Origin: an uncultured Actinomycetes bacterium
GTDB lineage: Bacteria > Actinomycetota > UBA4738 > HRBIN12
Direction of reading: 5' to 3'
Length of the DNA: 64,000 bases
Assembly (NCBI GenBank): GCA_963794065.1
Contig: CAWCDA010000057.1
Span: forward strand, 13,634 to 77,633
The notes beneath the pieces were generated by a model that saw only the letters and a program-made list of their open reading frames with translations, did not search any database and had not been told where the DNA came from. Below, one piece after another: positions 40,965 to 63,685 of the stretch (the first letter of the stretch is position 1; the number at the start of each line of letters is the position of its first letter). Position numbers and translations under genes: made by a program.

Positions 40965-41335
40965 ACGACCGCCCGTCCGAGCGTGATCCCGAGCCAGACG
41001 GCGCCGAGCCCGAGCACGAGGCTGAGCCCGATGTTGGCGAAGGCGGAACCGGTCGCCCCCTCCTCGAACATCCGCATCGTTTCCAGCGAGAACGTGGAGA
41101 AGGTGGTGTAGGCCCCCATCAGCCCCGTCGTGAGCGCCAGACGCATCGTGGGCGAGCCGGCGGCACGCTCGATCAGCAGGGCGAACAGGAGCCCGAGCAC
41201 GAAGGAGCCGCTGACGTTCACGACGAGCGTGCCCCACGCGAACGAGGGGAACCGTTGGCCGAACCACGAGCCGACCCCCCATCGGGCGAGGGCGCCGATC
41301 GCGCCGGCGATCGCGATCGCGAGAGCGGTCCGCAT
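40961..41335 (-). CDS. crcB: fluoride ion channel CrcB/FluC
   Basis: ORF 40961..41335. Motifs GAIGALARW, GTLVVNVSGSF and GAYTTFSTFSLE. Confidence 0.9.
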   Translation of the reverse strand: MRTALAIAIAGAIGALARWGVGSWFGQRFPSFAWGTLVVNVSGSFVLGLLFALLIERAAGSPTMRLALTTGLMGAYTTFSTFSLETMRMFEEGATGSAFANIGLSLVLGLGAVWLGITLGRAVV

Positions 41336-41485
41336 CGAGGCATCGTACTGCCCACCGAACGCCCAGAGCGGGTGCCGCCCGGACCCTCTCGGCCCAGGTC
41401 AGGGCACCCGAGGTCCGGTATCCTTCACCGGTCCCCGAGCCGGGGACGTTCCCGTGCGTGCGACGTTTTCCACATAGGAGGTTCG

Positions 41486-45645: not shown

Positions 45646-46233
45646 TCACGTTCGTGGCGCCACCTCCTCCAACGCGACGTTCAGTTCGAGGACATTGACC
45701 CGTGGCTCGCCGAAGACACCGAGGGTCGGCTCCTGCGTGTGCTGGTCGATCAACGTCTCGACCTCCTCGATCGGGAGGCCCCGGTTCGCCGCGATCCGGG
45801 GCGCCTGGAACCGGGCGGCCTCCACCGAGATGTGCGGGTCGAGCCCGCTCGCCGAGGTGGTGAGGAGGTCGGCCGGGATCGTGGCGGCCGTGAGGTCGGG
45901 CACGTACGGCGATTCGAGGGCGACGATGGCCGCGGCGCGCTGCTCGATGTCGTCGGCGAGTTGCCTGGACCGCGGCCCCAGGTTCGACCCGCCGGAGGTG
46001 GACGCGTCGTCCTCGACGGCAGACGGCCGCCCGTAGAACCAGGACGGACCGTCCCACTGTTGGCCGATCAGCGAGCTGCCGACGGGCTGCCCGTCGACGT
46101 CGACGAGTGATCCGTCCGCTCGATCGGAGAACGCCGCCTGTGCGACGGCGGTCATCACCAGCGGGTATGCCAGGCCGGTCAGCGCGGCCAGCAGCAGGGT
46201 GGCGACGACGGCGCGAACGATCGTCCGGATCAC
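45646..46233 (-). CDS. kdpC: K+-transporting ATPase subunit C
   Basis: ORF 45646..46233. Motifs [24 protein letters not shown] and ASGLDPHIS. Confidence 0.9.
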
Positions 46234-48290
46234 GGGAAGTGCACCGCCCCGAGGATCATGTCGATCAGCTTGATCCCGACGAAGGGCACGATGAGCCCGC
46301 CGAGACCGTAGATCAGCAGGTTGCGGCGCAACAGGCCCTCGGCGCCCAGCGGGCGATAGCGAACGCCCCGCAGCGCGAGCGGCACCAGCAGCACGATGAT
46401 CAACGCGTTGAAGATGACCGCCGAGAGGATCGCCGATTCCGGCGAGGTGAGGTGCATCACGTTGAGCTGATCCAGCGCGGGGTACGTCGCGACGAACATC
46501 GCCGGGATGATCGCGAAGTACTTCGCCACGTCGTTCGCGATCGAGAAGGTCGTGAGCGCGCCGCGGGTGATCAGGAGCTGCTTGCCGATCTCGACGATGT
46601 CCATCAGCTTGGTGGGGTTCGAGTCGAGGTCGACCATGTTGCCGGCCTCCTTCGCAGCGGTGGTGCCGGTGTTCATCGCAACCCCGACATCGGCCTGCGC
46701 CAACGCAGGAGCGTCGTTCGTGCCGTCGCCCGTCATCGCGACGAGCACCCCGCCCTCCTGCTCCTTCTTGATCAGCGCCATCTTCGTTTCCGGCGTCGCC
46801 TCCGCAAGGAAGTCGTCGACGCCGGACTCCTGGGCGATCGCGGCCGCGGTCAGCGGGTTGTCGCCGGTGATCATGATCGTGCGGATGCCCATCGTCCGCA
46901 GCTGCCCGAACCGCTCGGCAAGTCCGTCCTTGACGATGTCCTTGAGCTCGACGACCCCCATGGCCACGCGATCCCTGGCCACCGCCAGCGGCGTGCCGCC
47001 GGCTGTGGCGATCCGCTCCACCGCGTCGGACAACTCGGCGGGCAGCTCGGATCCGGACCAGGCGGCGACCGCATCCACGGCGCCCTTGCGGATCTCGACG
47101 CCCTCCAGATCGACGCCGCTCATCCTCGTCTGCGCGGTGAACGGCACGAAGCGCGCGTGCGTTTCCAACAACTCGTGTTCACGTAGGTTGAACCGCTCCT
47201 TCGCGAGCACGACGATCGAGCGCCCCTCCGGTGTTTCGTCGGCGAGCGATGCCATCTGCGCGACCTCGGCCAGCTCGCGCTCCTCGACGCCCGGAGCGGG
47301 GATGAACGCGACGGCGTGACGGTTGCCGAGCGTGATCGTGCCGGTCTTGTCGAGCAGCAGCGTGGAGACGTCGCCCGCGGCCTCGACGGCGCGCCCGCTC
47401 ATCGCCAACACGTTGCGCTGGACGAGCCGGTCCATCCCCGCGATCCCGATCGCCGACAGCAATCCGCCGATCGTGGTGGGGATCAAACAGACGAACAGCG
47501 CGATCAGCACCGCGTCGCTGACCCGGCCACCCGCGTAGATCGCGAACGGCTGCAGCGCCACCACCACGATCAAGAAGATGATCGTGAACTTCGTCAGCAG
47601 CAGCGACAGCGCGATCTCGTTCGGGGTCTTCTGGCGCTCGGCGCCCTCGACGAGGCGGATCATCCGATCGATGAAGCCCTCGCCCGGTTCGACGGCGATC
47701 CGGATCTTGACCCAATCCGACAGGACCTTCGTGCCCCCGGTCACGGCGGAGCGGTCGCCGCCAGATTCGCGGATCACCGGGGCCGACTCGCCGGTGATCG
47801 CCGACTCGTCCACCGATGCGATGCCCTCGACGACCTCCCCGTCACCGGGGATCAGCTCCCCGGCCGACACCATGACGACGTCATCGCGCCGGAGGTCCGA
47901 GGCGGAGACGAGCTCCTCACCGACGCCGTCGGTGAGCCGGCGCGCGACGAGGTCCGCCCGCGTCTTGCGCAACGACTCGGCCTGCGCCTTGCCTCGGCCC
48001 TCGGCCATCGCCTCGGCGAAGTTCGCGAACAGGACCGTGAACCACAGTCCGAGGGCGATCGCGGTGTCGAACGCGATCGGTCCTCCCTTCGTCGCGTCGA
48101 CGACCAGACGGATCGTGACGACGGCCGACACGACTTCCACGACGAAGATCACGGGGTTCCGGACGAGGGTGCGCGGGTCGAGCTTGCGAACGCTGTCCAC
48201 GATCGCGGTCTGCACGATCGCGTGGTCGAACAGCGGCCGGGCGCGAACGGTCGGTGTGCTCTCCACCTGCGGGGGCGCCGCGATCGCCAT
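46230..48290 (-). CDS. kdpB: K+-transporting P-type ATPase subunit B
   Basis: MAIAAPPQ starts at 48290 inside ORF 46230..49805. Motifs [20 protein letters not shown] and ITGDN. The start shares one nucleotide with the kdpA stop (TGATG). Confidence 0.95.
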
Positions 48291-49957
48291 CAGGTCAGCC
48301 CTCCCTGCAGGTGCTCGACGATCGGACCGAGCGCCAGCGCCGGTAGGAACGTCAACGCGCCGATGATCACGATGACGCCGGTCAGCAGCCCGGCGAACAG
48401 TCCGGTGTCGGTGCGCAGCGTGCCCGCCGTGAACGGCACGGTCCGTTCGCGCCCGACGCTCGCGCCGAGGGCGAGGGCCGCCAGGAGCGGGACGAAGCGG
48501 GCCACGAGCATCGCGATCCCGCCGGTGATCGTGTAGAAGGGCGAGCTCGCGGTCAGCCCGGCGAACGCTGAGCCGTTGTTGTTCCCCATCGACAGGTAGC
48601 CGTACAGGATCTCGCTGAACCCCTGGGGCCCCGTGTTGAGCCGACCCGCGAGCCCGGCCGGCAGCACCACCGCCAACGCCGCGAAGGCGAGCACCACCAA
48701 GAACGGCACCAGGATCGCGATCACGACGATCTTCACCTGCCGGGCCGCGATCTTCTTCCCGAGGTATTCGGGGGTGCGGCCCACCATGAGACCACCGATG
48801 AAAACGGCGATGACGACGTAGAAGAGCATCCCGTAGAGGCCGCTGCCGACCCCGCCGAACACGACCTCGCCGATCCCCATGTTGAACATCGGCGCGAGCC
48901 CTCCGAGCGCCTGATAGGAGTCGTGCATCGAGTTCACTGAGCCGTTGGACGCGGCCGTGGTCGCGACCGCCCACAGGGCCGATGCGTCCGTGCCGATGCG
49001 GACCTCCTTGCCCTCGAGGTTCGGGGCGGCGGCCGAGATGCCGGCCGCCTGCATCGCGGGGGTGGCGACCCGCTCGCCCGGCACGGTGATCGCGAGCCCG
49101 GCGATCAGCAGGATCCACATGGCGGCGAACAACACCCAGCCCTGGCGGACGTTGCCGACCCACTTGCCGAACGTGTATGTGAGTCCCGACGCGATCCACA
49201 GGATCGCGAACAGCTCCAGGATGTTCGACAGCGGCGTCGGGTTCTCGAACGGATGCGCCGAGTTCGCGCTGAAGAATCCCCCGCCGTTCGTGCCGAGCTG
49301 CTTGATCGCCAGCTGGCTGGCGACGGGGCCGCGCGCGATCAGCTGGGAGAACCCTTGCAGCCCCGTGACCTGCTGTGACTCGGCGAGCGTCTGCACCACG
49401 CCCTGGCTCATCAGCACGATCGCGAACAGCACCGAGAGCGGTAACAGGAGGTAGAGAACCCCCCGGATCAGATCGCGCCAGAAGTTGCCGACATGGTCCG
49501 TCCCGGTGCGGGTGAACCCGCGGATCAGCGCGACCAGCACGGCGACCCCGACAGCGGCGGACACGAAGTTCTGGAACGTGAGCGCCACCATCTGCGTGAA
49601 GTAGCTCATGGTCGTCTCGCCGCCGTAGGCCTGCCAATTGGTGTTGGTCATGAAGCTGGCGGCCGTGTTGAAGGCGAGATACGGGTTCACGCCCGGGAGT
49701 TGCTCCGGGTTGAGGGGCAGGTGCAGCTGGGTCCGCAGGATCACGAACACGAAGGCCATGCTGACCGCGCTGAACCACAGCAGCGAGCCCGCATACCGGC
49801 CCCACGACTGTTCCGCGTTCGGGTTCACGCCGAGCACCCGATAGCAGAGCCCTTCGAGTCTGCCGACCCGTTCGCGCGAGTAGATCCGGTACATGTACGC
49901 GCCCAGCGGCGGCGTCAGCAGGATCAGCACCAGGAGGAAGACGGCGATCGTCGCCAT
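48290..49957 (-). CDS. kdpA: K+-transporting ATPase subunit A
   Basis: [14 protein letters not shown] starts at 49957 inside ORF 48290..50080. Motifs [17 protein letters not shown] and NNGSAFAG. Confidence 0.95.
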
Positions 49958-50046
49958 CAGAACCGCTCCGGGTGGATCAAGACGTAGACGAGATACACGA
50001 GCAGGGCGGCGCTGACACCCAGCTCGAGGACATCCGCGATGCTCAT
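49957..50046 (-). CDS. kdpF: K+-transporting ATPase subunit F (29 aa)
   Basis: Below the ORF-track length cutoff. Hand translation gives [29 protein letters not shown]. Its stop overlaps the kdpA ATG (TGATG). Single TM helix, and the HPERF end resembles known KdpF termini. Confidence 0.75.
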
Positions 50047-50126
50047 ATCCGGTCGAACCAGCGGACGAGCGCGAACGCAAGCGCGAAGAAGCCGACCGTG
50101 ATGGCGATGACCCAGACGTCCCACAT
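50043..50126 (-). CDS. 27-aa hydrophobic micropeptide upstream of kdpF
   Basis: Hand translation gives [33 protein letters not shown] sits 8 nt upstream of the ATG at 50126. Its stop overlaps the kdpF ATG (ATGA). Confidence 0.5.
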   Translation of the reverse strand: MWDVWVIAITVGFFALAFALVRWFDRI

Positions 50127-50173: not shown

Positions 50174-50213
50174 GTGAGGAACCCCGACCCTCGACCTACG
50201 GGTTCCGTAAAGA
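50174..50213 (+). promoter_or_regulatory. candidate response-regulator half-sites in the kdp / HK1 divergent region
   Basis: CGTGAGGA at 50173-50180 and CGTAAAGA at 50206-50213, spaced 33 bp (3 x 11). They flank a GGAACCC-N15-GGGTTCC inverted repeat (50178-50206). Confidence 0.3.
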
Positions 50214-50272
50214 GTGGGCGCGCGGCGTCCCTGCGGTGCAGACGCGAGAACCGGCTTGGCTATCCTTCGACC

Positions 50273-51757
50273 ATGGGCTCCGCCACCACGTTCGAGCTGC
50301 TTCGGTCGCCCGCCGGTATCCGGCGACGGTCGATCGGGTACCTCATCGCGGTCCTCGGGCCGGTGCTGGTCGTCGCGATCATGTTGCCGTGGCGAGATCG
50401 GATCGAGCCGCTGACGATCGGCTTCGCGTTCCTCGTGGTGGTGGTCGTCGCCGCGGCGGTCGGACGGCTCGGCCCCGGCGTCCTCGCCTCGCTCGTCTCA
50501 TTTCTGGCGTTCAACTTCTTCTTCCTGCCGCCCTACGACACGTTCGTGATCGCGCGCGCGGAGCATGTCGTCGCGTTGTTCGTGTTCCTCGGGCTGTCGA
50601 TCCTGATCTCGTTGCTGTACGCGCGGGCGGTCGAGCGCGCGGACGCCGCCGAGGCTAAGGAGCGCGAGTTGCGGACCCTGCAGGAGCTCAGCCGCGACCT
50701 CGTCGTGCGCGGACCGGGAGAGGATGCCTACCGGGAGCTGTTGGCCGACGTGGTCGCGCGTTTCGCGTTCGACGCGGGAGCCTTGTTCGTCACGGATGCA
50801 ACCGCCGGGCTCCAGGAACGGGTCGTCGTGGGGGCGCCGATGGGCGCGATCTCGCCCTCGTGGAACCCCGCCGACCCCGGGCGGGCCCCGGAGCGCCTGC
50901 CGCTGTCGGTCGGGGCGCGCACCCTCGGGTTGATCGTGCTGACCGGCCAGCGTCCTGCACTGGACGGCTCGGAGGTGCGGGTCCTCCGGGCGGTGTGCGA
51001 TCAACTCGCGCTCGTGTTGGAGCGAGATCGGCTGCTGCGGAAGGCCACCGATACGGAGATCCTCAAACAGACGGAGACGGCTCGACGCAACGTGCTGGCG
51101 GCGGTCTCGCACGACCTCCGCAGCCCCCTGGCCGCGATCAAGGCCTCGGTGACGGATCTCCTCGATCCCGAGGTGGTCCGCTCTGACGCGGATCGAGGCG
51201 CGGTCTTGCTCGCGGTGGACCACGAAACGGATCGGCTCGATGCGCTCGTCGCGAACCTCCTGGACATGTCGCGCATCGAGGCGGGCGTGCTCCAGGCCCG
51301 CCCGGAGACGGTCGATCTCGCCGACGCGGTGACCGGGGAGGTGGACGCCGCGTCCGTTCGATGGCCGGCGGTGCGGATCGAGCCGTCGTTCTCGGCAGGC
51401 GACACCACGGCGCGGGCCGATCCGGTGCTCCTGTTGCGCGTGCTTTCCAACTTGCTTGATAACGCCGCCCGGGCGGCGGAGCGTGGCGGCGACGGGCCCG
51501 TGGCGGTCGAGGTCGCGCCGCAGGGCGACCGGGTGGCGGTCCGCGTCGTCGATCACGGCGCCGGCCTCGACGCCGCCGCTCGCAGACAGTTGTTCCTGCC
51601 GTTCGCCCGCCTCGATGAGCGCGAAACGACGCGCGGGCCCGGGCTCGGCCTCGCGATCGCGAAGGGGTTCCTCGATCTGATGGACGGACAGCTGTGGCTG
51701 GAGGACACGCCCGGGGGCGGCGCGACGTTCGTCTTCTCGTTGCCGGTGGCGACATGA
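50273..51757 (+). CDS. KdpD-type sensor histidine kinase lacking the N-terminal KdpD/Usp domains (DUF4118 + linker + HisKA + HATPase_c), paralog 1
   Basis: ATG at 50273 inside ORF 50174..51757. Four TM helices including FLAFNFFFLPPYDTF, an H-box AAVSHDLRSPLAAI, and the G-boxes. Confidence 0.85.
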   Translation: MGSATTFELLRSPAGIRRRSIGYLIAVLGPVLVVAIMLPWRDRIEPLTIGFAFLVVVVVAAAVGRLGPGVLASLVSFLAFNFFFLPPYDTFVIARAEHVVALFVFLGLSILISLLYARAVERADAAEAKERELRTLQELSRDLVVRGPGEDAYRELLADVVARFAFDAGALFVTDATAGLQERVVVGAPMGAISPSWNPADPGRAPERLPLSVGARTLGLIVLTGQRPALDGSEVRVLRAVCDQLALVLERDRLLRKATDTEILKQTETARRNVLAAVSHDLRSPLAAIKASVTDLLDPEVVRSDADRGAVLLAVDHETDRLDALVANLLDMSRIEAGVLQARPETVDLADAVTGEVDAASVRWPAVRIEPSFSAGDTTARADPVLLLRVLSNLLDNAARAAERGGDGPVAVEVAPQGDRVAVRVVDHGAGLDAAARRQLFLPFARLDERETTRGPGLGLAIAKGFLDLMDGQLWLEDTPGGGATFVFSLPVAT

Positions 51758-52446
51758 CGAGGATCCTCGTGGTCGACGACGAGCCGCAGATCCGCCTGGC
51801 GGTCGAACGGTCGTTGCTGGCCCGTGGCTACGATGTGCAGGTGGCCGGCGATGGCGCCGAGGCCCTCGATCTGGCGGCCGCGCGGCTGCCCGATCTCGTC
51901 ATCCTCGACCTCAACATGCCTGTGATGGATGGTCTCGAGTGCTGTCGACGGCTCCGGACGTGGACGGCTGTGCCCATCCTCGTGCTGTCGGTGCGCGAAG
52001 ACGAGCCGGACAAGATCGCGGCGCTCGATCTCGGCGCGGACGACTACCTGACCAAGCCCTTCGGCACCGGCGAGCTGCTGGCGCGCGTTCGCGCGCTGCT
52101 GCGTCGGGGCGAGGGCGCCGGGGCTCGTCCCTCGTTGTACCAACTCGACGGTGTCACGATCGATGTCGCGGCGCACCGCGTGACACGCCGCGACGAGGAC
52201 GTGCATCTCACGCGGACAGAGTGGGGATTGTTGGAGGCCTTCACCGCCCAGTCGGGGAAGCTGCTGACGCACCGATGGCTGCTCGAACAAGTGTGGGGCG
52301 ACACGTACGGCGAGGACGTCGAGGTGCTCCGCGTGTTCGTGAGCCAGCTCCGGCACAAGGTTGAGCCCGATCCGCGACGTCCCCGCGCGATCGTCACGGA
52401 GCCCGGCATCGGATACCGCTGGAACCTCCGCCCCGTCGACGGCTGA
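51754..52446 (+). CDS. kdpE: KdpE-like OmpR-family response regulator, paralog 1
   Basis: ATG at 51754 overlaps the kinase stop (ATGA). Motifs ILVVDDEPQIR, DDYLTKPF and EPGIGYRW. Confidence 0.9.
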   Translation: MTRILVVDDEPQIRLAVERSLLARGYDVQVAGDGAEALDLAAARLPDLVILDLNMPVMDGLECCRRLRTWTAVPILVLSVREDEPDKIAALDLGADDYLTKPFGTGELLARVRALLRRGEGAGARPSLYQLDGVTIDVAAHRVTRRDEDVHLTRTEWGLLEAFTAQSGKLLTHRWLLEQVWGDTYGEDVEVLRVFVSQLRHKVEPDPRRPRAIVTEPGIGYRWNLRPVDG

Positions 52447-52455
52447 GCCGCTCGC

Positions 52456-54877
52456 TCAGACCGCGGCCGGCGCCGCGGGCGTGCGCACGCCGCCCTGCAC
52501 GTAGTACGGGATGTCCGCGACGTCGACGTGCGCGTAGCGCCCCAGCGCCCGCTGGATCTTCCGGCTGGTGCGATCGTGCAGCAGCCGCTGGCGGATCTTC
52601 GGGTAGTCGCGGCGCGGCATCACCGCGGTGACCTCGCTCGTGTCCGAGGCCATCGCAACCACGTAGCGCTCGAGCGCCCGCGGGATGTCGCGGTCCCAGC
52701 ATTCGATCACGTCAAGCGGCACCGGCGCCTGGAGCTCCATCCAGCGCCGCGCGAGTCGCGCCGCGCGATCGGGGTCCGCCGCGGCGTGCACCGCCCGGAT
52801 CGAGGTGGCGCCCAGCTCGAGCCCGTAGGAGAGGGCCTCCAGGGTCGCGCGGTCCAGCTTGTCCACGAGGACAACGACCTCGTGGGTGCCGCGCGTCGTG
52901 AGCCGCACCACCGGTCGGCCCTCCTCGTCTCGCTGGAGAGGGTGGACCCCTTCGGGGTGATCGCGCACGAGGGTGACCCGGACATGCGCGTAGGGGAGCA
53001 GCGCGCGGTGCAGCTTCGCCCCCGCTCGCCGATCCGAGAAGCTCTCCGCCGCCGTCCGCGAGTGCGGCACAGGCAGCAGCACGATGACCTCGCGATCCGC
53101 TCGCTCGTAGGCGGCGAGGAACCCCGCCAGTCTCGCCGCCTCGTCTCCGCCTCCGCGGACGATGCGTAGGGGGATCTCCCCGAGGCCGGCGAGCGCCCAC
53201 GCCTGCGAGAGCGCGCGCGCTCGGTCGGCGTCCTCCTCCAGGTGAACCGCGATCGTGCGCTCGCATCGGATCGTGCGGGCGTACTGCAGGGCGTGCACGG
53301 TTTTGGGATCGAGATCGTCCACCAGCAGGATCGCGATCGGCGCGCGCCCGCTGGGCGGCGAGAAGGCGGCCAGATCGCGCTCCAACTCGACGGTCTCGTG
53401 TTGGTACTGCTTGTTCATCCGTACCAGGAGCCACACGAGCAACGGCACCAGGATCAGGATCGCCCAGGCGCCCTCGGCGAACTTCGTTCGGGCGATGATG
53501 ACCAACACGATCGCCGTCGCCACGGCGCCGGCGCCGTTGATCAACAGGCCCACCCGCCAGCCCTCCTCGCGGAGCCGGATGTGGCGCTTGGCCATCCCCG
53601 CCTGGGACAGCGAGAAGGACGTGAACACCCCGATCGCGTAGAACGGGATCAACTTCGTGACGTCGGCGTGGAACGCGATCACGAGCGCGATCGCCGCCGC
53701 CGACAGCGCGATGATCCCGTTCGAGAACACCAGCCGGTGCCCCCGCGTGGTGAACTGGCGCGGCAGGAAGTCGTCGCCCGCGTGGAAGTTGGCCAGGCGA
53801 GGGAAGTCGGCGTAGGCGGTGTTGGCTGCCAGCACGAGGATCAGCATCGTGGCGATCTGCAGCAGCGCGAATGCCGCGTGGCCGATCGGTCCCGATCCGT
53901 ACACCGCGCGGCCGATGTCCGCGACGACCGTCGATGTGCCCGTGAAGTCCGGCCGGATCTGCAGCTTGGCCGCCAGATAGGAGATCCCGAGGAACATCGT
54001 CGACAGCAGGAGGCCGAGCACGACGAGGGTTTGGCGTGCGTGCTTCCACTCGACGGGCTTGAAGGCGGGCACGCCGTTGGAGATCGCCTCGACCCCGGTC
54101 ATCGCGGTGCTGCCGGACGCGAGGGCGTGCAGCGCGATGAACATCGGCACCCCGGCGAGGAAGCCGAGACCTGCGCCGGTGGCCGTCACCGCCTGTTGCG
54201 GCGCCACGAGCGAGCCGGTGAGCACGCGGAGGCCACCGACGACGAGCAGAGACATGATGCAGGCGATGAACACATAGGTCGGCGCCGAGAAGATCTTGCC
54301 GGACTCGCGCACGCCGCGAAGGTTCCCGAAGGCGATCAGACAGATGAAGGCCACCGCCATCTCGACGCGGAACGGTGCTGGTCGAGGGCACCAGGGCGAT
54401 CACCGCGGCCACGCCGGCGGAGACCGAGACCGCGACGGTCAAGACATAGTCGGTCAGCAGCGCAACGCCCGCCACCTGCGCCGGGATAAGCCCGAAGTTG
54501 TCCTTCGTGACGATGTAGGCCCCGCCGGCGGAGGGATAGGCCTTGATCGTCTGGCGATAGCTGAACACCAGGATCGCCAGCACGCCGACGATCGCGGCCG
54601 ACAGCGGCACGATCAGGGTGAATGCGACGGCGCCGACGCCCGCGATGAACAGCGTCTTGAGCATCTCCTCGGTCGCGTAGGCAACCGAGGACAACGCGTC
54701 GGAGCTGAAGATCGCCAAGGCCGCGACCTTGCCGAGGCGTTCGTGCGCCAGGTTGGCGGTGGGGAGCGCCCGGCCGAGCGCGGCTCGCTTTGCCGCGTAC
54801 CCGAGCCCCCGCGGGAGAGGACCGCGGCCGTTGGGAGCCGCGACGTCGCTCGAGGGAGTATCGACATCGGTACGCAT
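52456..54877 (-). pseudogene. KimA-like APC-superfamily K+ importer with tandem C-terminal cytoplasmic domains, frameshifted
   Basis: The N-terminal 165 aa (MRTDVD...SSDALSSVAYATEEML...YRQTIKAYPSAGGAYIVTKDNFG...AGVAAVIALVP) are in the frame of ORF 52712..54937. The rest (FRVEMAVAFICLIAFGNLRG...TGVEAISNGVPAFK...) is in the frame of ORF 52456..54360. The frame switches by 1 nt at about 54375-54390. Confidence 0.7.
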
Positions 54878-54929: not shown

Positions 54930-56345
54930 GTGACCACCGTGGACCATGCCGCCGTGCCGACGACCGAGCGACTAGGTGTCGCCGTACCCGGGTGGCGGGT
55001 GCCGGCGGCCTACGTGATCGCTACGGTCGGGGCCGGTGCGCTGGCGGCCGTCATGCTGCCGATCCGCGACGATCTGACGCACACGATCGAGGCGTTCTTG
55101 TTCTTGGTGCCCGTCGTGGCCGCCTCGTGGCTGGGCGGTGTGTGGCCCGGCGTGGTGGCCGCGATCGTTTCCTCTGCCTTGTTCAACGTCGGCTTCCTGC
55201 CACCGTACGGAACATTCGATCTCGAGCGGCCCGAGTACCTCGGCGCATTCCTGGGATTCCTCGCGCTGTCGCTCGTGATCTCGTGGCTCGTCGGTGTGGC
55301 GCGGGAGCGAGCGAGCGCGGCCGAGGATCGGGAAGCCGAGGTCCGCCTGCTGTTCGACCTCAGTCACGTGCTGGTGTCCGAGCGCGCGGAAGGGCTGACG
55401 CCCGCGCTCGCGCGCGCCGCGGAGCGGCTCGGGTTCGTCATGGCGACGGTGCGGGACCCGGACGACGTTGAACGTGGCGGGCTCGACATCCCTTTGCGGG
55501 TTGGCGAGGCCTCGTTCGGATCACTCGTCTTCGTGGGTACGCGGCCCCCGCTAACGACCGCCGAGACGCGGGTCGTGCGCACCTTCGCCGACGAGGTGGC
55601 CCTTGTCGTGGCGGGCGATCGCCTGACGGCCGAGCTCCGAGAGGCGGAGCTGTATCGCGCCACGGAGGACATGCGCCGCTCCCTGCTTGCCGCCGCCTCG
55701 CACGAGCTGAAGAGCCCGGTGGCGGCCATCACGGCGTCGGTCACGGACGTGCTCGGCCGCGATCACCTCGATCTCGACGTCGTGCGTGAGGTCCTGGAAG
55801 ACGTCCGGGCGTCCACGAGCCGCCTCGAGCAGCTGATCACGAACCTGCTGGATATGTCGCGGATCGAATCGGGCACACTGGTCGCCCGGCGCGAAACGGT
55901 GTACCTCGACGATCTCATCGGGCCCGCCGTCGACGGTGTCCGGGGGCGATGGCCCGGCGTCGATATCAGCGTCGACATCGCCGAGGATGCCGACCGCGTC
56001 CGAGGCGATGCGTTGTTCGTCGAGCGCATCGTCACCAACCTGGTCGAGAACGCGGCTCGAGCGGTCCGCGGTGCCGCGGATAGAAGGATCGAGCTTCGCG
56101 GCTCGCGTGAGGGGGATACGGTCGTGCTCCTCGTGGTCGATCATGGTCCCGGGCTCAACTTCGGCGACCACACGCTGCTGTTCACGCCGTTCTACCGCCT
56201 GCAGGAGGGGTCCCCACGGCTGGGCGCCGGGCTCGGGCTGGCGATCTGCAAGGGCTTCACGCTCGCGATGGACGGAGAGATCTGGGCCACGGACACGCCG
56301 GGGGGCGGCGCGACGTTCGGCGTGCGGATCCCGGCCGCCTCATGA
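54930..56345 (+). CDS. KdpD-type sensor histidine kinase lacking the KdpD/Usp domains, paralog 2
   Basis: ORF 54930..56345. DUF4118-like TM block (ALFNVGFLPPYGTF) and H-box AAASHELKSPVAAI. Confidence 0.85.
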   Translation: MTTVDHAAVPTTERLGVAVPGWRVPAAYVIATVGAGALAAVMLPIRDDLTHTIEAFLFLVPVVAASWLGGVWPGVVAAIVSSALFNVGFLPPYGTFDLERPEYLGAFLGFLALSLVISWLVGVARERASAAEDREAEVRLLFDLSHVLVSERAEGLTPALARAAERLGFVMATVRDPDDVERGGLDIPLRVGEASFGSLVFVGTRPPLTTAETRVVRTFADEVALVVAGDRLTAELREAELYRATEDMRRSLLAAASHELKSPVAAITASVTDVLGRDHLDLDVVREVLEDVRASTSRLEQLITNLLDMSRIESGTLVARRETVYLDDLIGPAVDGVRGRWPGVDISVDIAEDADRVRGDALFVERIVTNLVENAARAVRGAADRRIELRGSREGDTVVLLVVDHGPGLNFGDHTLLFTPFYRLQEGSPRLGAGLGLAICKGFTLAMDGEIWATDTPGGGATFGVRIPAAS

Positions 56346-57034
56346 GCGGCCCGGTGGTGCTGGTCGTCGACGACGAGCCACAGATCCTGCGTGCGGTCGA
56401 GCGCACACTTTCGGCTCGGGGTTTCGTTGTGCACACGGCAAGCGACGGGCGGTCGGCCGTCGGCGCCGTGGCCGATGACCCGCCGGATCTCGTGGTGCTC
56501 GATCTGAACCTGCCGCACCTCGACGGGCTGACGGCGTGCCGGGAGATCCGCCGCTCGAGCCGCGTGCCGATCCTCGTGCTGTCCGTGCGCGACGCGGAGG
56601 AGGACAAGGTCGCGGCGTTGGACCTGGGGGCAGACGACTATCTGACGAAGCCGTTCGGAGCGGCGGAGCTGCTGGCACGCGTCCGCGCGCTGCTGCGCCG
56701 GGCCGCCCCCGGGCCGACGGGAACGCGGTTCGTGGCCGGCGACCTCACCGTCGACGTCTCCGCGCGCGCCGTGACGCGCGGCGGCCTCGACGTGCATCTG
56801 ACGCCGACCGAGTGGCGGTTGCTGGAAGCGCTCGCCGGGGCGCCGGGGGTGCTCCGGACCCACGACTGGCTGCTCGGTCACGTCTGGAGCGAGGGCGGGG
56901 CCCCCGACGTGGAGGCGCTCCGGGTGTTCGTGAGCCAGCTCCGCGCCAAGCTCGAGGCGGATCCGAGACGCCCGCAGGTGATCGCGACCGAGCCCGGCGT
57001 CGGGTACCGCTGGCAGCTCGAGCCGCCCGGCTAG
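56342..57034 (+). CDS. KdpE-like OmpR-family response regulator, paralog 2
   Basis: ORF 56342..57034, with ATGA overlap onto HK2. Motifs VLVVDDEPQILR, DDYLTKPF and EPGVGYRW. Confidence 0.9.
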   Translation: MSGPVVLVVDDEPQILRAVERTLSARGFVVHTASDGRSAVGAVADDPPDLVVLDLNLPHLDGLTACREIRRSSRVPILVLSVRDAEEDKVAALDLGADDYLTKPFGAAELLARVRALLRRAAPGPTGTRFVAGDLTVDVSARAVTRGGLDVHLTPTEWRLLEALAGAPGVLRTHDWLLGHVWSEGGAPDVEALRVFVSQLRAKLEADPRRPQVIATEPGVGYRWQLEPPG

Positions 57035-57035
57035 G

Positions 57036-57701
57036 TCAGTCTCCGACGATCGTTGCGCGCAACGCGTGCTCCGCGCCGGCGCCCGCCAGCGCGACGAGCT
57101 CGTCGCCGGCGCCGAACACTGTCTCCGGCTGCGGGATGACCACGTGGCCGTCCCGCAGGATCGCGACGATCGCGGAGTCTTTCGGCATCCGCAGTTCGTA
57201 GAGCGGCCGACCGGCTGCGGGGGAGTCGGCCTCGAGCTTCATCTCGACGATCGAGATGCGCCCGCCCTCCAGCCGGAGCAGCTGGACCAGGTCGCCGGAC
57301 GTGACAGCCTCCTCCACCATCGAGGTCAGCATGTGCGGGGGAGACACGGCGGTGTCGACGCCCCATTGGTCGGTGAACAGCCACTCGTTCTTCGGGTGGT
57401 TGACGCGTGCGAGCACGCGCGGGACCGCGAACTCTTGCTTGGCGAGCAGCGCCGTCACCAGGTTGTCTTCGTCGTCGCCCGTCGCGGCGACGACCACGTC
57501 GGTGTGCACGAGGTCGGCGTCGTCGAGCACCCAGGGCTCGCAGGCGTCGCCGAGCATGACGCTCACCTCCGGGATCTCCTGACGGAGGTCGTCGACGGTG
57601 GCGCGGTCCTGCTCGATCAGCGTGACCTCGTGGCCGCGGACGACGAGATCGGCCGCAACGTGCCGTCCGATCGCGCCCCCGCCGGTGACCAAGACCTTCA
57701 T
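57036..57701 (-). CDS. trkA: TrkA/RCK K+ transport regulatory subunit (RCK_N + RCK_C)
   Basis: MKVLVTGGGAIGRHVA starts at 57701 inside ORF 57036..58004. The start shares a nucleotide with the upstream trkA stop. Confidence 0.9.
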   Translation of the reverse strand: MKVLVTGGGAIGRHVAADLVVRGHEVTLIEQDRATVDDLRQEIPEVSVMLGDACEPWVLDDADLVHTDVVVAATGDDEDNLVTALLAKQEFAVPRVLARVNHPKNEWLFTDQWGVDTAVSPPHMLTSMVEEAVTSGDLVQLLRLEGGRISIVEMKLEADSPAAGRPLYELRMPKDSAIVAILRDGHVVIPQPETVFGAGDELVALAGAGAEHALRATIVGD

Positions 57702-58363
57702 CAGTGGTGCTCCCCCGCCGCCTCGAGCGAGGCGTCCAACTCGTCCATATAGTCCTTGCCCATCATCACGATCAGGAAGTCTCCCTCCTGCATCGTGGAG
57801 TCGGCGGCGGGCACGAAGCCCTTGCCGCCGCGAGAGATGCCGGCGACCAAGATGTGTCCGTCGACGTTGAGCGAGGAGACCGGCTTGCCCACCAGATGGC
57901 TCGGAACGGGGACGCGCACGCGTAAGAGCTCCCCTCCGCCCAGGCTCTCGCGCACCTCCTTGCCGGTGTGCAGCAACATCAGCTGCACCTGCTTGACCCC
58001 CCACGTCGTCGTTGCGACGGTCGGGATGTTCAGCCGCTCATAGATCTCCGCGCGGCGAGGATCGAAGATGCGCGCGATCACCTTGGGCACGTGATAGTGC
58101 TCGAGCGCGACCCGTGCCGACACGATGTTGGAGTTGTCTCCACTCGAGACCGCGATGAAGGCGTCGGCGTCGCGGATGCCCGCCTCCTCCAACACATCGC
58201 GATCGAAGCCCAGGCCGACGATCCGTCGCGCGTGCTCTCCGGGGGGATAGCGGTCGAACGCGTCCTCGCGCTTGTCGATCACGGTGACGTCGTGGCCGGC
58301 CTCGCCGAGCGCGTGTGACAACTCGGACCCGACACGACCGCATCCCATGATCAAGACCCGCAT
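57701..58363 (-). CDS. trkA: TrkA/RCK K+ transport regulatory subunit (RCK_N + RCK_C)
   Basis: ORF 57701..58363 with MRVLIMGCGRVGSELS (GxGxxG). Confidence 0.9.
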   Translation of the reverse strand: MRVLIMGCGRVGSELSHALGEAGHDVTVIDKREDAFDRYPPGEHARRIVGLGFDRDVLEEAGIRDADAFIAVSSGDNSNIVSARVALEHYHVPKVIARIFDPRRAEIYERLNIPTVATTTWGVKQVQLMLLHTGKEVRESLGGGELLRVRVPVPSHLVGKPVSSLNVDGHILVAGISRGGKGFVPAADSTMQEGDFLIVMMGKDYMDELDASLEAAGEHH

Positions 58364-58680: not shown

Positions 58681-60129
58681 GTGCGCGTGGCCACCGAGCG
58701 CAGGGATTCCCGCATCGAACGGATCTCGTGGCGGGCGGTCCTCATCGGGCTGGTGGCCGTCGCATGTGCTGCCCTGCTTGCGCTCTTGACCAGAGAGCTG
58801 GGGCCAGGCTCGTCGACGGCGATCTTCATGCTGGCCGTCACGATGGCCGCGGTTAGCGGCGGGATCTGGGCCGGGGTGGTCGCCGCTTTGCTCGCCTCGA
58901 TGATCTCTCCGGTGATCGAGCATCCCGACCTCGGGCTGCAGTTCGAACAGCTGCGCGACGTCATCGCCGCGGTCGTGTTCCTCGCGATCGCGGCGGTGGT
59001 CGGCCTGGTCGTGGGCAACGCCGCCGTCGAGCGACGGCGTGCGACCGAGCGCGAGCGGGAGGCCAGGCTCTTGGCCTTCCTCTCGACCAAACTGTTGTCG
59101 GGGGATGTGCCGGACCGGGTGCTCGACGAGTTCGTCGACGTCCTGCTCGTGCCCTTCGGGCTCGCCTCGTGCACCGTCCAGGTCACGCTCGACGGTCAGC
59201 CGATGTCCGCGACGGCGACCCGCGAGGGTCTCGAGCCCGGTGGACCGACCGAGCTCGTGCCGGTCGTGGTCGCGTCGATCCCGCTTGGCACGCTTTCGGC
59301 CGAACGGCCCGTGCGCGGTCGTCCGTTCACGAAGCGCGAACGTGAGCTGCTCGAGGCCGCGACCCGTCAAGCCGCCGTCGCGTTGGACCGGGCCCGGTTG
59401 GACGCCCGCGCGCGGCTCGCGCAGCTCGACGCCGAGACGAACCAGCTGCGCGCGGCGATGTTCTCCTCGGTCACCCACGACCTGCGCACGCCGCTCGCGT
59501 CGATCAAGGCCGGCGTGACGAGCCTGCTCGATCAGTCGACGACGCTTGGGGTGGAGCGGGAGCGGGATCTGCTGCTCACGATCCTGGAGGAGACCGACCG
59601 GTTGAACCGCCTGGTAGGCAACATCCTGGATCTCGCGCGGATCCGAGCGGGCGCGCTCATCCCTCGGCAGGTGCCGACCTCGGTGGACGAGGTCGCCGAA
59701 GTGGTGGTGGCGCGGATGCGCGCTCGCCTCGGCTCGGTCCGGCTTGAGCTCGCGATCGCACCCGACCTCCCCGAGATCGCTGCCGACCCGGTGCAGCTGG
59801 ACCAGGTGCTGACGAACCTGCTGGAGAACGCCGCCCGACACTCCCCGAGCGGTGGCATCGTGCGCGTCCACGTCGGCCTTGCGGAGCACGGCGTCCGGGT
59901 CCGCGTCAGCGACGAGGGCCCCGGGATCCCTCCGGAGCAACGGGAGAAGGTCTTCGAAGCCTTCTATCGTGGCCGCGAAGAGCCGGAGCGTCCGGGGAGC
60001 GGCCTCGGGCTCGCGATCGCTCGCGCGATCGTGACGGCGCACGGTGGACGCATCTGGGTCGAGGAGACGACGGGCGGCGGCGCCGCGGTGGTGTTCGATC
60101 TGCCGATCGAGGAGGAGGTGGAGGCGTGA
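58681..60129 (+). CDS. KdpD-type sensor histidine kinase lacking the KdpD/Usp domains, paralog 3
   Basis: ORF 58681..60129 (alternative GTG at 58687). Four TM helices and H-box SSVTHDLRTPLASI. Confidence 0.85.
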   Translation: MRVATERRDSRIERISWRAVLIGLVAVACAALLALLTRELGPGSSTAIFMLAVTMAAVSGGIWAGVVAALLASMISPVIEHPDLGLQFEQLRDVIAAVVFLAIAAVVGLVVGNAAVERRRATEREREARLLAFLSTKLLSGDVPDRVLDEFVDVLLVPFGLASCTVQVTLDGQPMSATATREGLEPGGPTELVPVVVASIPLGTLSAERPVRGRPFTKRERELLEAATRQAAVALDRARLDARARLAQLDAETNQLRAAMFSSVTHDLRTPLASIKAGVTSLLDQSTTLGVERERDLLLTILEETDRLNRLVGNILDLARIRAGALIPRQVPTSVDEVAEVVVARMRARLGSVRLELAIAPDLPEIAADPVQLDQVLTNLLENAARHSPSGGIVRVHVGLAEHGVRVRVSDEGPGIPPEQREKVFEAFYRGREEPERPGSGLGLAIARAIVTAHGGRIWVEETTGGGAAVVFDLPIEEEVEA

Positions 60130-60809
60130 AGGTGCTGGTTGTCGACGACGAACCGCAGATCCGTCGCGCCCTGCGCACGACCCTCGAGGCCCACGGGTAC
60201 GTCGTGGAAACGGTCGGCACCGGGGACGAAGGAGTCGTCGCGGCCGCGGGGCAGCCTCCCGAACTGATCCTGCTGGACCTCGGCCTGCCGGACATGGACG
60301 GGACCGAGGTGATCCGGCGGGTCCGGGCCTTCTCCGAGGTGCCGATCATCGTGCTGTCCGTGCGGGAGAGCCAGACGGACAAGGTCGCCGCGCTCGACGC
60401 GGGCGCCGACGATTACGTCACGAAGCCGTTCGGCATGGAGGAGCTGCTGGCACGGTCCCGGGCGGCGCTCCGCCGCCGAGGCACCGAGGAGCCAACGGTC
60501 CCGGTGCTCGCCTTCGGTGATCTGCAGGTGGATCTCGCTCGCCGCCTGGTGACGAGCGAGGAGGAGCAGGTACGTCTGACGCCGACCGAATATGGCCTCC
60601 TCGAGGCGTTCGTGACCAATCCGGGGAAGCTGCTTACCCACCAGTGGCTCCTGCGGCGTGTTTGGGGACAGGGGTACGGCACCGAGACCACGTACCTGCG
60701 CACCTACGTCCGGGCGCTCCGCAAGAAACTCGGCGACGACGCATCGGCTCCCGCGCTGATCGTGACCGAGCCGGGGGTCGGGTATCGATGGATCGCGGAG
60801 CCGAGCTGA
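60126..60809 (+). CDS. KdpE-like OmpR-family response regulator, paralog 3
   Basis: ORF 60126..60809, with GTGA overlap onto HK3. Motifs VLVVDDEPQIRR, DDYVTKPF and EPGVGYRW. Confidence 0.9.
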   Translation: MKVLVVDDEPQIRRALRTTLEAHGYVVETVGTGDEGVVAAAGQPPELILLDLGLPDMDGTEVIRRVRAFSEVPIIVLSVRESQTDKVAALDAGADDYVTKPFGMEELLARSRAALRRRGTEEPTVPVLAFGDLQVDLARRLVTSEEEQVRLTPTEYGLLEAFVTNPGKLLTHQWLLRRVWGQGYGTETTYLRTYVRALRKKLGDDASAPALIVTEPGVGYRWIAEPS

Positions 60810-60843: not shown

Positions 60844-63186
60844 GTGCCGATGAGCAGCGCATCGAAGGGATCGACGGGCTCGGTCGCCAAGCGGGTCCTG
60901 GTGGGTCGGGCGTTCAACAGCGCGAACCTCGAGCACACGCTGTTGCCGAAGGTGCTCGCCCTGCCCGTCTTCGCCTCCGACGCCCTGTCCTCGGTCGCAT
61001 ACGCCTCGGGCGAGATCTTGCTCGCACTGACGCTGGCCACCACCACGCCGACGAAGTACGTGATGCCGATCTCCTTCGCGATCGCCGCCCTGATGGCGAT
61101 CGTGGTGAGCTCCTACCGCCAGACCGTTCGCGCCTATCCCGGTGGCGGTGGCGCCTACATCGTCAGCAAGGAGAACCTGGGCGTGTTCGCCGGCCTGGTC
61201 GCCGCCGCCGCCCTGCTCTTCGACTACATGATGACGGTCGTCGTGTCGATCGTGGCGGGGGTGTTCGCGATCGGGTCCGCGTTCCCGTGGGCGAACGAGC
61301 ACAAGGTCCTCCTCTCGCTGACCTTCGTCGGTCTGATCACCTTGGCGAACCTTCGCGGCACGAAGGAATCGGGGACGCTCTTCGCGATCCCGACCTACGG
61401 CTTCGTGGTGTCGATCCTCGTGTTGATCAGCGTCGGCGTCGTCAAGTGCCTCAACGGGTGCCCGACCGTGGTGCCGTCGCCCCACCAGGTCGAGACGGCG
61501 ACGGCGGTGGCGGGGATCACGATCTTCGCCCTGCTCAAGGCGTTCTCGCAGGGCGCCACGGCCCTGACGGGGGTCGAGGCCATCTCCAACGGCGTCCCGG
61601 CTTTCAAGCGCCCGCAGGCGAGGAACGCCGCGGCGACCCTGGCGATCATGGGCACGATCGCCGTGACGATGTTCCTGGGCATCTCGTATCTGGTGACCCA
61701 CGTGCACGGCGTGGTCGCCAGCGAGGAGCAGTCCGCGGTCGCGCAGGTGGCCAACGCGGTCTTCGGCGGCAGTTCGCTCGGTTTCTACATCGTGCAGACG
61801 TTCACCGCCCTGATCCTCATCCTCGCGGCGAACACGGCCTACCAGGACTTTCCGCGGCTCGCCTCGATCCTCGGCCGCGATCGCTACATGCCGAGCCAGT
61901 TCGTGAACCGCGGCGATCGCCTCGTCTTCTCCAACGGCGTCATCGTGCTGGGCCTGTTGTCGGCGCTGATGATCTACGTCTTCGACGCGAGCCTCGACAG
62001 GCTGATCCATTTCTACGTGGTGGGAGTGTTCACCTCGTTCACCTTGTCGCAGAGCGGGATGGTCCGCCACTGGATCCTGGAGGGGCGCAAGGGCGAGAAC
62101 GCGATGAAAGGCTGGCGACGCTCGATCGTGATCAACATCATCGGCGCGGTCACGACGTTCGTCGTGCTGATCGTCGTGATCGCGTCGAAGTTCAAGGACG
62201 GGGCGTGGCTCTCGATCCTGATCATGGCGCTTCTCGTGCCGGTGTTTTATGCGATCCACCGTCACTACATGTGGGTGCGATCGGTCGTCCATCGCGGGGT
62301 CGAGCGTGTCGGCGTCGTCGGGACCAATCACATCGTGCTGCTCGTGCGCGAGATCGACCCGTCGGTCGCCGAGGCGCTGGGCTATGTCCGGTCTCTACGG
62401 CCGGAGTCGCTGCACGCGATCACCCCCGGCGAGACCGTCGATCCTGATCTCGCACGGCGATGGAGCGACTTCGCCGGCCGCCAGACGCCCGCGCTGACCC
62501 CGATCGGCGCCGGCAGCCTCACCGCCGGTGTGCGCCGGTTCGTGGCCTCCCTCGACCTGACGCCCCACGACGTCGTCACCGTGGTGGTGCCCGAGATGGT
62601 CGGCGACCATCTGACGAGTCACGTCGTGCACACGAAGGACCTCGTGCGTCTCAAGGCGGCGATGCTCGGCATCCCGCACGTCGTCGTCACCGATGTCCCC
62701 GTCGTGAGCACGCACGAGGGGCCGCGCGGCGTGGACGCCAAGCCGCTGATCCCGCATCGCACCGTCGCCCTCGTGTTCGTGTCGGGGGTGAACGACCTCA
62801 CGATCCGCGCGGTGAACTACGCGAAGTCGCTCGATGCCAGCGTCACCCGCGCGATCTACTTCGACCTGGACCCGGAGCAGGCGCACCGTCTCGAAACCGC
62901 GTGGTTCGACGCTGCCCTCGAGATTCCGCTCGACATCGTGGAGGCGCCGTTCCGCGACCTCACCGGGCCGATGCTGGAGGAGGTGCGGCGCTACTCGTCC
63001 GACCCGGGCACGGTCGTCGACGTGATCGTGCCCGAGGTGATCGTGTCGCATTGGTGGCAGCTGCCCTTGCACAACCAGAACGCCTTGTTCATCAAGCGCC
63101 TGTTCCTGTTCGAGGATCGTGTCGTCCTGACCAGCGTGCCCATGCTCGTCAAGGGGACCCCCAAGCGCGAGACCGAGACGGTCTGA
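60844..63186 (+). CDS. KimA-like APC-superfamily K+ importer with tandemly duplicated C-terminal cytoplasmic domain (780 aa)
   Basis: ORF 60844..63186. Blocks ASDALSSVAYASGEIL, YRQTVRAYPGGGGAYIVSKENLG, LLKAFSQGATALTGVEAISNGVPAFKRPQARNAA, LAANTAYQDFPRL, GDRLVFSNGV and YVVGVFTSFTLSQSGM track my recollection of B. subtilis KimA (YdaO) closely. Confidence 0.8.
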   Translation: MPMSSASKGSTGSVAKRVLVGRAFNSANLEHTLLPKVLALPVFASDALSSVAYASGEILLALTLATTTPTKYVMPISFAIAALMAIVVSSYRQTVRAYPGGGGAYIVSKENLGVFAGLVAAAALLFDYMMTVVVSIVAGVFAIGSAFPWANEHKVLLSLTFVGLITLANLRGTKESGTLFAIPTYGFVVSILVLISVGVVKCLNGCPTVVPSPHQVETATAVAGITIFALLKAFSQGATALTGVEAISNGVPAFKRPQARNAAATLAIMGTIAVTMFLGISYLVTHVHGVVASEEQSAVAQVANAVFGGSSLGFYIVQTFTALILILAANTAYQDFPRLASILGRDRYMPSQFVNRGDRLVFSNGVIVLGLLSALMIYVFDASLDRLIHFYVVGVFTSFTLSQSGMVRHWILEGRKGENAMKGWRRSIVINIIGAVTTFVVLIVVIASKFKDGAWLSILIMALLVPVFYAIHRHYMWVRSVVHRGVERVGVVGTNHIVLLVREIDPSVAEALGYVRSLRPESLHAITPGETVDPDLARRWSDFAGRQTPALTPIGAGSLTAGVRRFVASLDLTPHDVVTVVVPEMVGDHLTSHVVHTKDLVRLKAAMLGIPHVVVTDVPVVSTHEGPRGVDAKPLIPHRTVALVFVSGVNDLTIRAVNYAKSLDASVTRAIYFDLDPEQAHRLETAWFDAALEIPLDIVEAPFRDLTGPMLEEVRRYSSDPGTVVDVIVPEVIVSHWWQLPLHNQNALFIKRLFLFEDRVVLTSVPMLVKGTPKRETETV

Positions 63187-63205: not shown

Positions 63206-63685
63206 ATGAACATCCGCCCCGCGACCAAGGACGACCTCGTCTTCCTCCGCAAGATGCTCTACGAGGCGGCACGCTGGAACCCGGATTGGCCACGGGAGCC
63301 GATGGAGGAGGTCCTCGCCGAGCCCATGCTGTTGCGGTACTACCAGGGCTGGGGCCGGGCCGGCGACGGCGGCGTGCTCGCCGAGATCGAGGGGGACCCT
63401 GTGGGCGCGGCGTGGTACCGGCTCTTCACGGACGGTGCACCCGGCTACGGCTTCGTCGACGAGAAGACTCCCGAGCTGTCGATCGCCGTCGTGCCCCTCC
63501 ACCGCCGCAAAGGCATCGGCGAAGCGGTCCTTCGCTCGTGCATGGTCCAGGCACGGGAGGAGGGCTTCCAGGCACTGTCGCTGTCGGTGGCCGCGCACAA
63601 CCGCTCGCGGATGATGTACCAGCGAGCCGGGTTCGAGCGCGTGGCGGAATCCGGGGATCACTGGACGATGGTCGCCAACCTCTAG
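63206..63685 (+). CDS. GNAT family N-acetyltransferase
   Basis: ORF 63206..63685 with motif VPLHRRKGIGEAVL. Confidence 0.85.
   Translation: MNIRPATKDDLVFLRKMLYEAARWNPDWPREPMEEVLAEPMLLRYYQGWGRAGDGGVLAEIEGDPVGAAWYRLFTDGAPGYGFVDEKTPELSIAVVPLHRRKGIGEAVLRSCMVQAREEGFQALSLSVAAHNRSRMMYQRAGFERVAESGDHWTMVANL

Follow-up and report, generated by a model that had tools for sequence, protein, structure and literature searches.

KimA (YdaO) of Bacillus subtilis (PDB 6S3K, 8B70, and 8B71) serves as the structural reference for the entire KUP/HAK/KT family. To our knowledge, its single cytoplasmic domain, acting via cyclic di-adenosine monophosphate (c-di-AMP), provides the only described route of post-translational control, and the Bacillus KimA studied so far is switched off by this nucleotide. 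The K+ site and gates of KimA are formed by D36, Y43, T121, (S125), T230, and Y377, while E233 acts as the proton coupler and D117/Y118 are tunnel residues (PMC6994465, PMC10284832). Residues H579-N580-Q581-S582 belong to the c-di-AMP pocket, and Arg337 is needed for high-affinity binding of c-di-AMP (PMC10284832). Here, we analyzed a kimA-like gene encoding a transporter with a doubled cytoplasmic tail. The gene is located in a 64-kb stretch of DNA with a G+C content of approximately 69%; this whole stretch is referred to below as the window. Its source is a metagenome-assembled genome (3.1 Mb, 77.5% complete) from an uncultured actinomycete. The G+C content at third codon positions (GC3) of the kimA-like gene was 0.93. 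Coordinates of this gene, its domains, and its neighbors are collected in Table 1.

In a phmmer search against PDB sequences, KimA (6S3K/8B70/8B71) was the sole match of the window protein at E ≤ 1, with an E-value of 1.3e-123 and a score of 417 bits for 6S3K. The alignment fell into two parts: residues 16–478 of the window protein correspond to KimA 6–457 (domain score of 380 bits), and residues 627–764 correspond to the KimA cytoplasmic domain (461–600). Approximately 145 residues of the window protein, lying between these parts, have no counterpart in KimA. All nine residues of the K+ site, gates, tunnel, and proton coupler were retained in the alignment: D36, Y43, D117, Y118, T121, S125, T230, E233, and Y377 of KimA correspond to D46, Y53, D127, Y128, T131, S135, T242, E245, and Y391 of the window protein, respectively. 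Seven of these nine were invariant over 62 aligned homologues (36 doubled and 26 single-domain proteins), and the equivalents of D117 and Y377 each differed in one sequence. The K+ site and gate equivalents (D36, Y43, T121, S125, T230, and Y377) were invariant in the 36 doubled proteins; the E233 equivalent was present in 62/62 homologues and that of D117 in 61/62. We assign the window protein, as a prediction, to K+/H+ symporters of the KimA type (KimA subfamily, KUP family, APC superfamily), in agreement with the original prediction, which had recognized the conserved blocks of KimA in its membrane part.

The tail of the protein consists of two tandem copies of the KimA-type α/β domain (PPAT/USP-like), designated module 1 and module 2. 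The two modules matched each other in BLASTP with an E-value of 2e-8 and 28% identity. Their Smith–Waterman score was 93, compared with a mean of 30, standard deviation of 5, and maximum value of 62 in 2000 shuffles (z = 12). Comparison of their profiles by hhalign (103 homologues) gave a probability of 97.4% and an E-value of 1.5e-11 over 128 columns. A diverse module-1 profile of 67 sequences (A3) matched KimA 467–606 among the PDB sequences over the whole profile length (E = 8.4e-10); a shallow profile built from 26 close relatives (A1) gave no match in PDB sequences.

The AlphaFold2 (AF2) model of the tail (residues 462–780; alignment of 93 sequences) had a predicted local distance difference test score (pLDDT) of 90 and a predicted template modeling score (pTM) of 0.89. 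In this model, both modules have five strands with four helical elements in between, and DSSP divides the final helical element in two; the same strand/helix topology was reported for the KimA domain (PMC6994465). Module 1 folded alone reached a pLDDT of 86. Its three best PDB matches in Foldseek were the KimA structures 8B70, 6S3K, and 8B71 (query-normalized TM-scores, TMq, of 0.72, 0.59, and 0.70), followed by USP and PPAT folds. The original prediction had placed two homologous modules in the C-terminal part of this open reading frame. The reading frame is real, and the proposed module limits nearly coincide with those predicted from the AF2 model (62326–62712 and 62758–63147); BLASTP, hhalign, the A3 profile, and Foldseek agree on the homology of the two segments, both with one another and with the KimA domain. 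The doubled architecture recurs in hundreds of independent assemblies, and we therefore rejected an assembly artefact or chimera. A doubled KimA tail was not described in the literature searched, which lay largely outside subscription journals; the doubled architecture appears to be new, KimA and its single domain being already known.

Single-domain homologues (607–712 aa) matched the module-2 half of the tail only (residues ~150–290 of the tail query) and scored far better with the hidden Markov model (HMM) of module 2 than with that of module 1. In the MAFFT alignment, too, the single-domain proteins and KimA fell on module 2, so that module 1 appears as an insertion following transmembrane (TM) helix 12. 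The matches, the HMM scores, and the alignment identify module 2 as the canonical domain, orthologous to the single domain of all other KimA proteins, and module 1 as the extra copy. The equivalent of the KimA pocket motif was found in module 2 of the window protein (H743-N744-Q745-N746), with S582 replaced by N. Its H was kept in 36/36, N in 26/36, and Q in 30/36 module-2 copies. Module 1 has lost the motif: it reads HTKD in the window protein, and the commonest residue at each position among 36 module-1 copies gives R-R-R-D.

Among close relatives, the TM domain and module 2 had mean protein identities of 82% and 83%, respectively, compared with 61% in module 1; the ratios of nonsynonymous to synonymous substitution rates (dN/dS) were 0.19 (TM domain), 0.18 (module 2), and 0.38 (module 1). 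Protein-level evolution of module 1 is two- to threefold faster; the module is relaxed, yet under purifying selection. Near-invariant positions of module 1 comprise the W, Y, P-E, L-K, and T-D-V-P blocks, and the module persists in 12 or more families as well as in both ancient paralogues.

Doubled proteins clustered in the tree of the TM domain (3 changes, compared with ~21 in shuffles), and ten single-domain proteins of the Streptomyces/Mycobacterium type, from families with large genomes, formed a clade nested within the doubled clade. The existence of one doubled clade was borderline in the approximately unbiased (AU) test (p = 0.052). The nested single-domain forms may have lost module 1 secondarily. 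These proteins have 660–712 aa (loci L089–L095, L099, and L103–L105 of families f24, f38, f41, f47, f14, and f51) and come from large genomes bearing a diadenylate cyclase; the linker between TM helix 12 and the domain is ~30 residues longer in them than in other single-domain forms. In the tree of the modules, 30 of the 36 module-1 copies formed one group, module 2 grouped with the single domains, and one clade for all module-1 copies was not rejected (AU p = 0.38). These trees are compatible with a single old duplication, perhaps followed by losses. The module tree also grouped modules 1 and 2 of the paralogue family, which is represented in the window by a second kimA gene, with a long-branch warning; the AU test does not support this grouping. 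Two independent duplications would be a possible alternative history, but the grouping of the paralogue modules carries that warning and a single module-1 clade is compatible with the AU test.

At 90% identity, over 1300 clusters of proteins matched the whole tail. Among 1.84 billion representatives, the tail profile matched 6126 clusters at E ≤ 1e-3, 3906 at 1e-10, and 926 at 1e-30; these values indicate family size only, with doubled and single forms not separated, as many of the sequences are fragmentary genes and single domains reach ~200 bits as well. In one protein from the representative search (P0297, 960 aa), the region after the TM domain matched the module HMMs four times, each time in part; large inserts in its modules or a module number above two may be the cause. 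In an even sample of Actinomycetota, the domain was encoded in 144/301 genomes and the doubled form in 72/301; within the window's own order, the doubled form was present in 22 of the 23 sampled genomes. The domain was found in 110/201 genomes of Chloroflexota, almost all of them with module 2 only, and the doubled form in almost none. Doubled proteins were also present in Nitriliruptoria, including the cultured Euzebya tangerina (768 aa), and all 120 matches of the Nitriliruptoria search had module 1 followed by module 2. The duplication is old, and the doubled form is almost wholly limited to Actinomycetota.

Genomic data on c-di-AMP signaling were also analyzed. Diadenylate cyclase (PF02457) was encoded in 212/301 Actinomycetota genomes (~70%) and in the control genomes; it was found in none of 41 genomes of the window's order (26 of them of high quality), the window genome included. 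The c-di-AMP riboswitch RF00379 was likewise detected in 0/41 genomes of the order, with positive results in the controls B. subtilis and C. glutamicum. An Rfam scan gave no family matches within the window; therefore, a ydaO riboswitch is absent upstream of kimA. The window's order appears to lack c-di-AMP signaling. Among genomes with the doubled form, 58 had no cyclase and 14 had one, compared with 31 and 198, respectively, among the other Actinomycetota genomes (odds ratio of 26, uncorrected for shared ancestry). By family, the comparison was 9/12 versus 5/23 (p = 0.004), also uncorrected for shared ancestry. Doubling is enriched in cyclase-free genomes; since the figures are uncorrected, this is an association and not a demonstrated cause. 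The cyclase was present in 58/72 single-domain genomes. KimA Arg337 is replaced by Ser in the window's close relatives only. Control by c-di-AMP probably does not apply in the window lineage, despite the pocket motif kept in module 2, because neither a recognizable cyclase nor a c-di-AMP riboswitch was found there. The persistence of H-N-Q points to another ligand or to a structural role. The original prediction had inferred altered regulation from the doubled tail, and the comparative data add to this inference.

Taken as a whole, these data are probably best explained by a symporter of the KimA type with a doubled tail forming a two-lobed unit, with gating independent of c-di-AMP and with Kdp-like control of expression. 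Modules 1 and 2 would pack together into a single compact body of two lobes, in the manner of the SLC12 C-terminal domain, and module 1 would provide, within the same chain, the partner surface that the domain of the other protomer provides in Bacillus KimA. Because the lineage is without cyclase and riboswitch, the activity of the transporter there would not be gated by c-di-AMP; gating would instead depend on another ligand or a state sensed by module 2. Synteny suggests that kimA expression would be set by the adjacent upstream KdpD/KdpE-like two-component system responding to K+ availability. More tentatively, the duplication may have turned the intermolecular domain pair of KimA into an intramolecular pseudo-dimer, freeing regulation, and perhaps assembly, from domain-swapped dimerization and c-di-AMP. 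Lineages that lost c-di-AMP signaling would, in that case, still restrain K+ uptake post-translationally, with another ligand or state being sensed, and the two-lobed plan of SLC12 would have been recreated independently in the KUP family.

Several points weigh against this explanation. The arrangement of the modules is taken from one AF2 monomer model, which fits SLC12 tails no more than moderately (TMq ≤ 0.47, root-mean-square deviation, rmsd, of 7–17 Å). Arg337 is retained in other doubled proteins, some of them from cyclase-free genomes, and H-N-Q is strongly conserved in module 2 even in cyclase-free lineages; this conservation would also fit an undetected source of c-di-AMP, and the window genome is incomplete (77.5%). 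The 14 doubled-form genomes with a cyclase belong to families f15, f31, and f50, of which f31 includes Euzebya. The doubled tail is solidly established at the level of sequence and predicted fold, and the mechanism is a proposal.

It is possible, although rather doubtful, that the doubled tail has remained a receptor for cyclic dinucleotides or nucleotides, in which module 2 binds c-di-AMP, or ATP, ADP, AMP, or another messenger in lineages lacking c-di-AMP, just as Bacillus KimA does, and module 1 is a passive spacer lengthening the tether. Such a receptor would account for the H, N, and Q retained in module-2 copies, for the PPAT/USP-like fold, which is a nucleotide-binding class, and for the occurrence of the cyclase (DAC) in the 14 doubled-form genomes of f15, f31, and f50; however, both cyclase and riboswitch are missing from all 41 genomes of the window's order, Arg337 is Ser in the window's clade, and a passive spacer is unlikely to keep a confident fold (pLDDT of 86–90) and a dN/dS of 0.38 across the phylum. 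The same dN/dS, indicating purifying selection, bears on another explanation, which we regard as improbable, namely that module 1 is a functionless, decaying duplicate heading for loss, as perhaps happened in the nested single-domain proteins of 660–712 aa. The faster divergence of module 1 (61% versus 83% identity), its lost pocket motif, and the ten single-domain proteins inside the doubled clade of the TM-domain tree would be expected from decay, but module 1 has near-invariant positions, is kept in at least 12 families and both ancient paralogues, and the nesting of the single-domain proteins is itself borderline (AU p = 0.052). Being relaxed but still selected, module 1 is therefore not a decaying remnant.

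Databases would make the protein an amino-acid/polyamine permease of the APC type, a reading to which we give hardly any credence. Pfam recognized only the generic AA_permease_2 in it (residues 52–448, 102 bits, E = 5.5e-29), no NCBIfam model matched the window protein or its paralogue, and source databases name the proteins matching the tail “APC family permease” or “amino acid transporter”. The PDB search does not place the protein closer to amino-acid/polyamine carriers: no structure of such a carrier was matched at E ≤ 1, where KimA was matched at 1e-123. The genomic context of the gene is one of K+ homeostasis, and the label “amino acid transporter” is almost certainly wrong because all K+/H+ residues of KimA are conserved.

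The KimA-type symporter with a doubled tail represents a large clade (72 of the 301 sampled Actinomycetota genomes, hundreds of protein clusters). It offers a natural experiment on the braking of K+ uptake without c-di-AMP and on the origin of two-lobed tails of the SLC12 kind, and the cultured carrier Euzebya tangerina opens the question to bench work. Recognition of doubled KimA would improve annotation because neither Pfam nor NCBIfam has a model for the tail domain.

Table 1. Features of the kimA-like gene and of the surrounding K+/cation homeostasis genes, in window coordinates.
Feature	Coordinates	Strand	Residues	Basis and remarks
kimA-like gene	60844–63186	+	780 aa	ORF list and translation; GTG start, alternative ATG start two codons on
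12-TM LeuT-fold transport domain	60889–62277	+	16–478	alignment to KimA 6–457; Pfam AA_permease_2, E = 5.5e-29
Module 1, additional KimA-type cytoplasmic domain (faster-evolving copy)	62326–62712	+	495–623	hhalign, profile, AF2/Foldseek, dN/dS
Linker between modules	62713–62757	+	624–638	mostly coil (one 2-residue bridge), flanked by strands E152–162 and E178–184 of the tail model; poorly conserved
Module 2, canonical KimA cytoplasmic domain	62758–63147	+	639–768	phmmer to KimA 461–600; single-domain homologues
H743-N744-Q745-N746, equivalent of KimA pocket H579-N580-Q581-S582	63070–63081	+	743–746	alignment mapping
GNAT acetyltransferase	63206–63685	+		Pfam Acetyltransf_1; 19 nt downstream of kimA
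KdpE-like response regulator	60126–60809	+		Pfam Response_reg-Trans_reg_C; best NCBIfam KdpE, below cut-off; 34 nt upstream of kimA
KdpD-C-terminal-like histidine kinase	58681–60129	+		Pfam DUF4118-GAF-HisKA-HATPase; best NCBIfam KdpD, below cut-off
Two TrkA (RCK) genes	57036–58363	−		Pfam TrkA_N/TrkA_C, NCBIfam TrkA; divergent from the kinase–regulator–kimA cassette
Three pairs of KdpD-C-like kinase and KdpE-like regulator	50174–52446, 54930–57034, 58681–60809			
Paralogous doubled kimA	52456–54877	−		34% identity; one extra base near 54379; module 1 at 52960–53343, module 2 at 52504–52884
kdpC and kdpA	45646–50080	−		island members
Stand-alone KdpD-N plus Usp “non-kinase sensor”	44146–45333			island member
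H+-PPase (H+-pyrophosphatase)	41255–43750			island member
NhaA	39292–40647			island member

The region 39292–60809 is predicted to be a K+/cation homeostasis island. The cassette of trkA on the minus strand and histidine kinase, response regulator, kimA, and GNAT genes on the plus strand was found in nearly all of 49 related actinobacterial loci. The GNAT gene, syntenic in nearly all related loci with 72–95% identity, is better conserved than kimA; NCBIfam has no specific family for its protein, and a functional link with the transporter is possible. In loci L016, L020, L025–L028, L034, L036, and L039–L042, two doubled kimA genes are located in tandem behind a single kinase–regulator pair; their products are ~50% and 68% identical to the query. 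A promoter/terminator scan of the 58–64 kb region gave results at the chance level, and the only “terminator” lay inside coding sequence.

The second kimA gene of the window shows the same doubling, as had been proposed for it: its modules 1 and 2 matched each other in BLASTP (E = 9.5e-8) and in the Smith–Waterman comparison (z = 15), with the caveat that the gene is frameshifted in the window assembly. The extra base splits it over two reading frames; this base is missing from five of five related genomes, in which the gene is intact and encodes 793–802 aa. The frameshift may represent a real pseudogene or a long-read assembly indel. The latter is suggested because another relative (G006) is broken elsewhere in the same gene.

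The window protein shares with B. subtilis KimA (6S3K, 8B70, 8B71) the 12-TM LeuT fold, the K+ site, and the equivalents of E233 and D117/Y118. Alike in both is also the C-terminal α/β domain with a five-stranded parallel sheet, and the H-N-Q pocket is kept in module 2. However, KimA has a single cytoplasmic domain, in contrast to the two tandem domains of the window protein. The window clade differs from KimA in the replacement of Arg337 by Ser, in the absence of a ydaO riboswitch upstream, and in belonging to a lineage without diadenylate cyclase; furthermore, the window gene is preceded by genes of a KdpD/KdpE-like two-component system. Single-domain KimA-like proteins of Streptomyces, Mycobacterium-type Actinomycetota, and Chloroflexota (607–712 aa) have the same transport domain and the orthologue of module 2, without module 1. 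Streptomyces venezuelae has two such single-domain proteins, so far unstudied (PMC10117811).

In Foldseek, the best match of the whole tail model was KimA (one module, 149 columns), followed by KCC2, NKCC1, NCC, KCC1, and KCC3. The matches to SLC12 tails extended over 324–400 columns, with TMq of 0.38–0.47 and rmsd of 7–17 Å; a single module of the tail model could not provide alignments of this length. For the isolated NKCC1 tail (6NPJ), for example, TMq was 0.46 and the target-normalized score (TMt) was 0.40. The values for SLC12 tails exceed the 0.39 of a single aligned module but are moderate, and the resemblance is no proof that the lobes are arranged alike. The SLC12 tail is said, after work by Warmuth et al. 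in 2009, to have two related α/β lobes. The single domain of KimA shares its fold with the tail of archaeal MaCCC (PMC6994465). No SLC12 chain was matched at E ≤ 1 in the search of PDB sequences with the window protein. Like the window protein, SLC12 proteins (KCC1–4, NKCC1, NCC; MaCCC, PDB 3G40) are carriers of the APC superfamily with a large cytoplasmic tail; they differ in having substrate sites for a cation plus Cl−, as opposed to K+/H+, and in their regulation by phosphorylation, which has no counterpart shown for the window protein. As modeled, the window protein resembles SLC12 carriers in the plan of its tail and is a KimA-type protein, not a member of SLC12.

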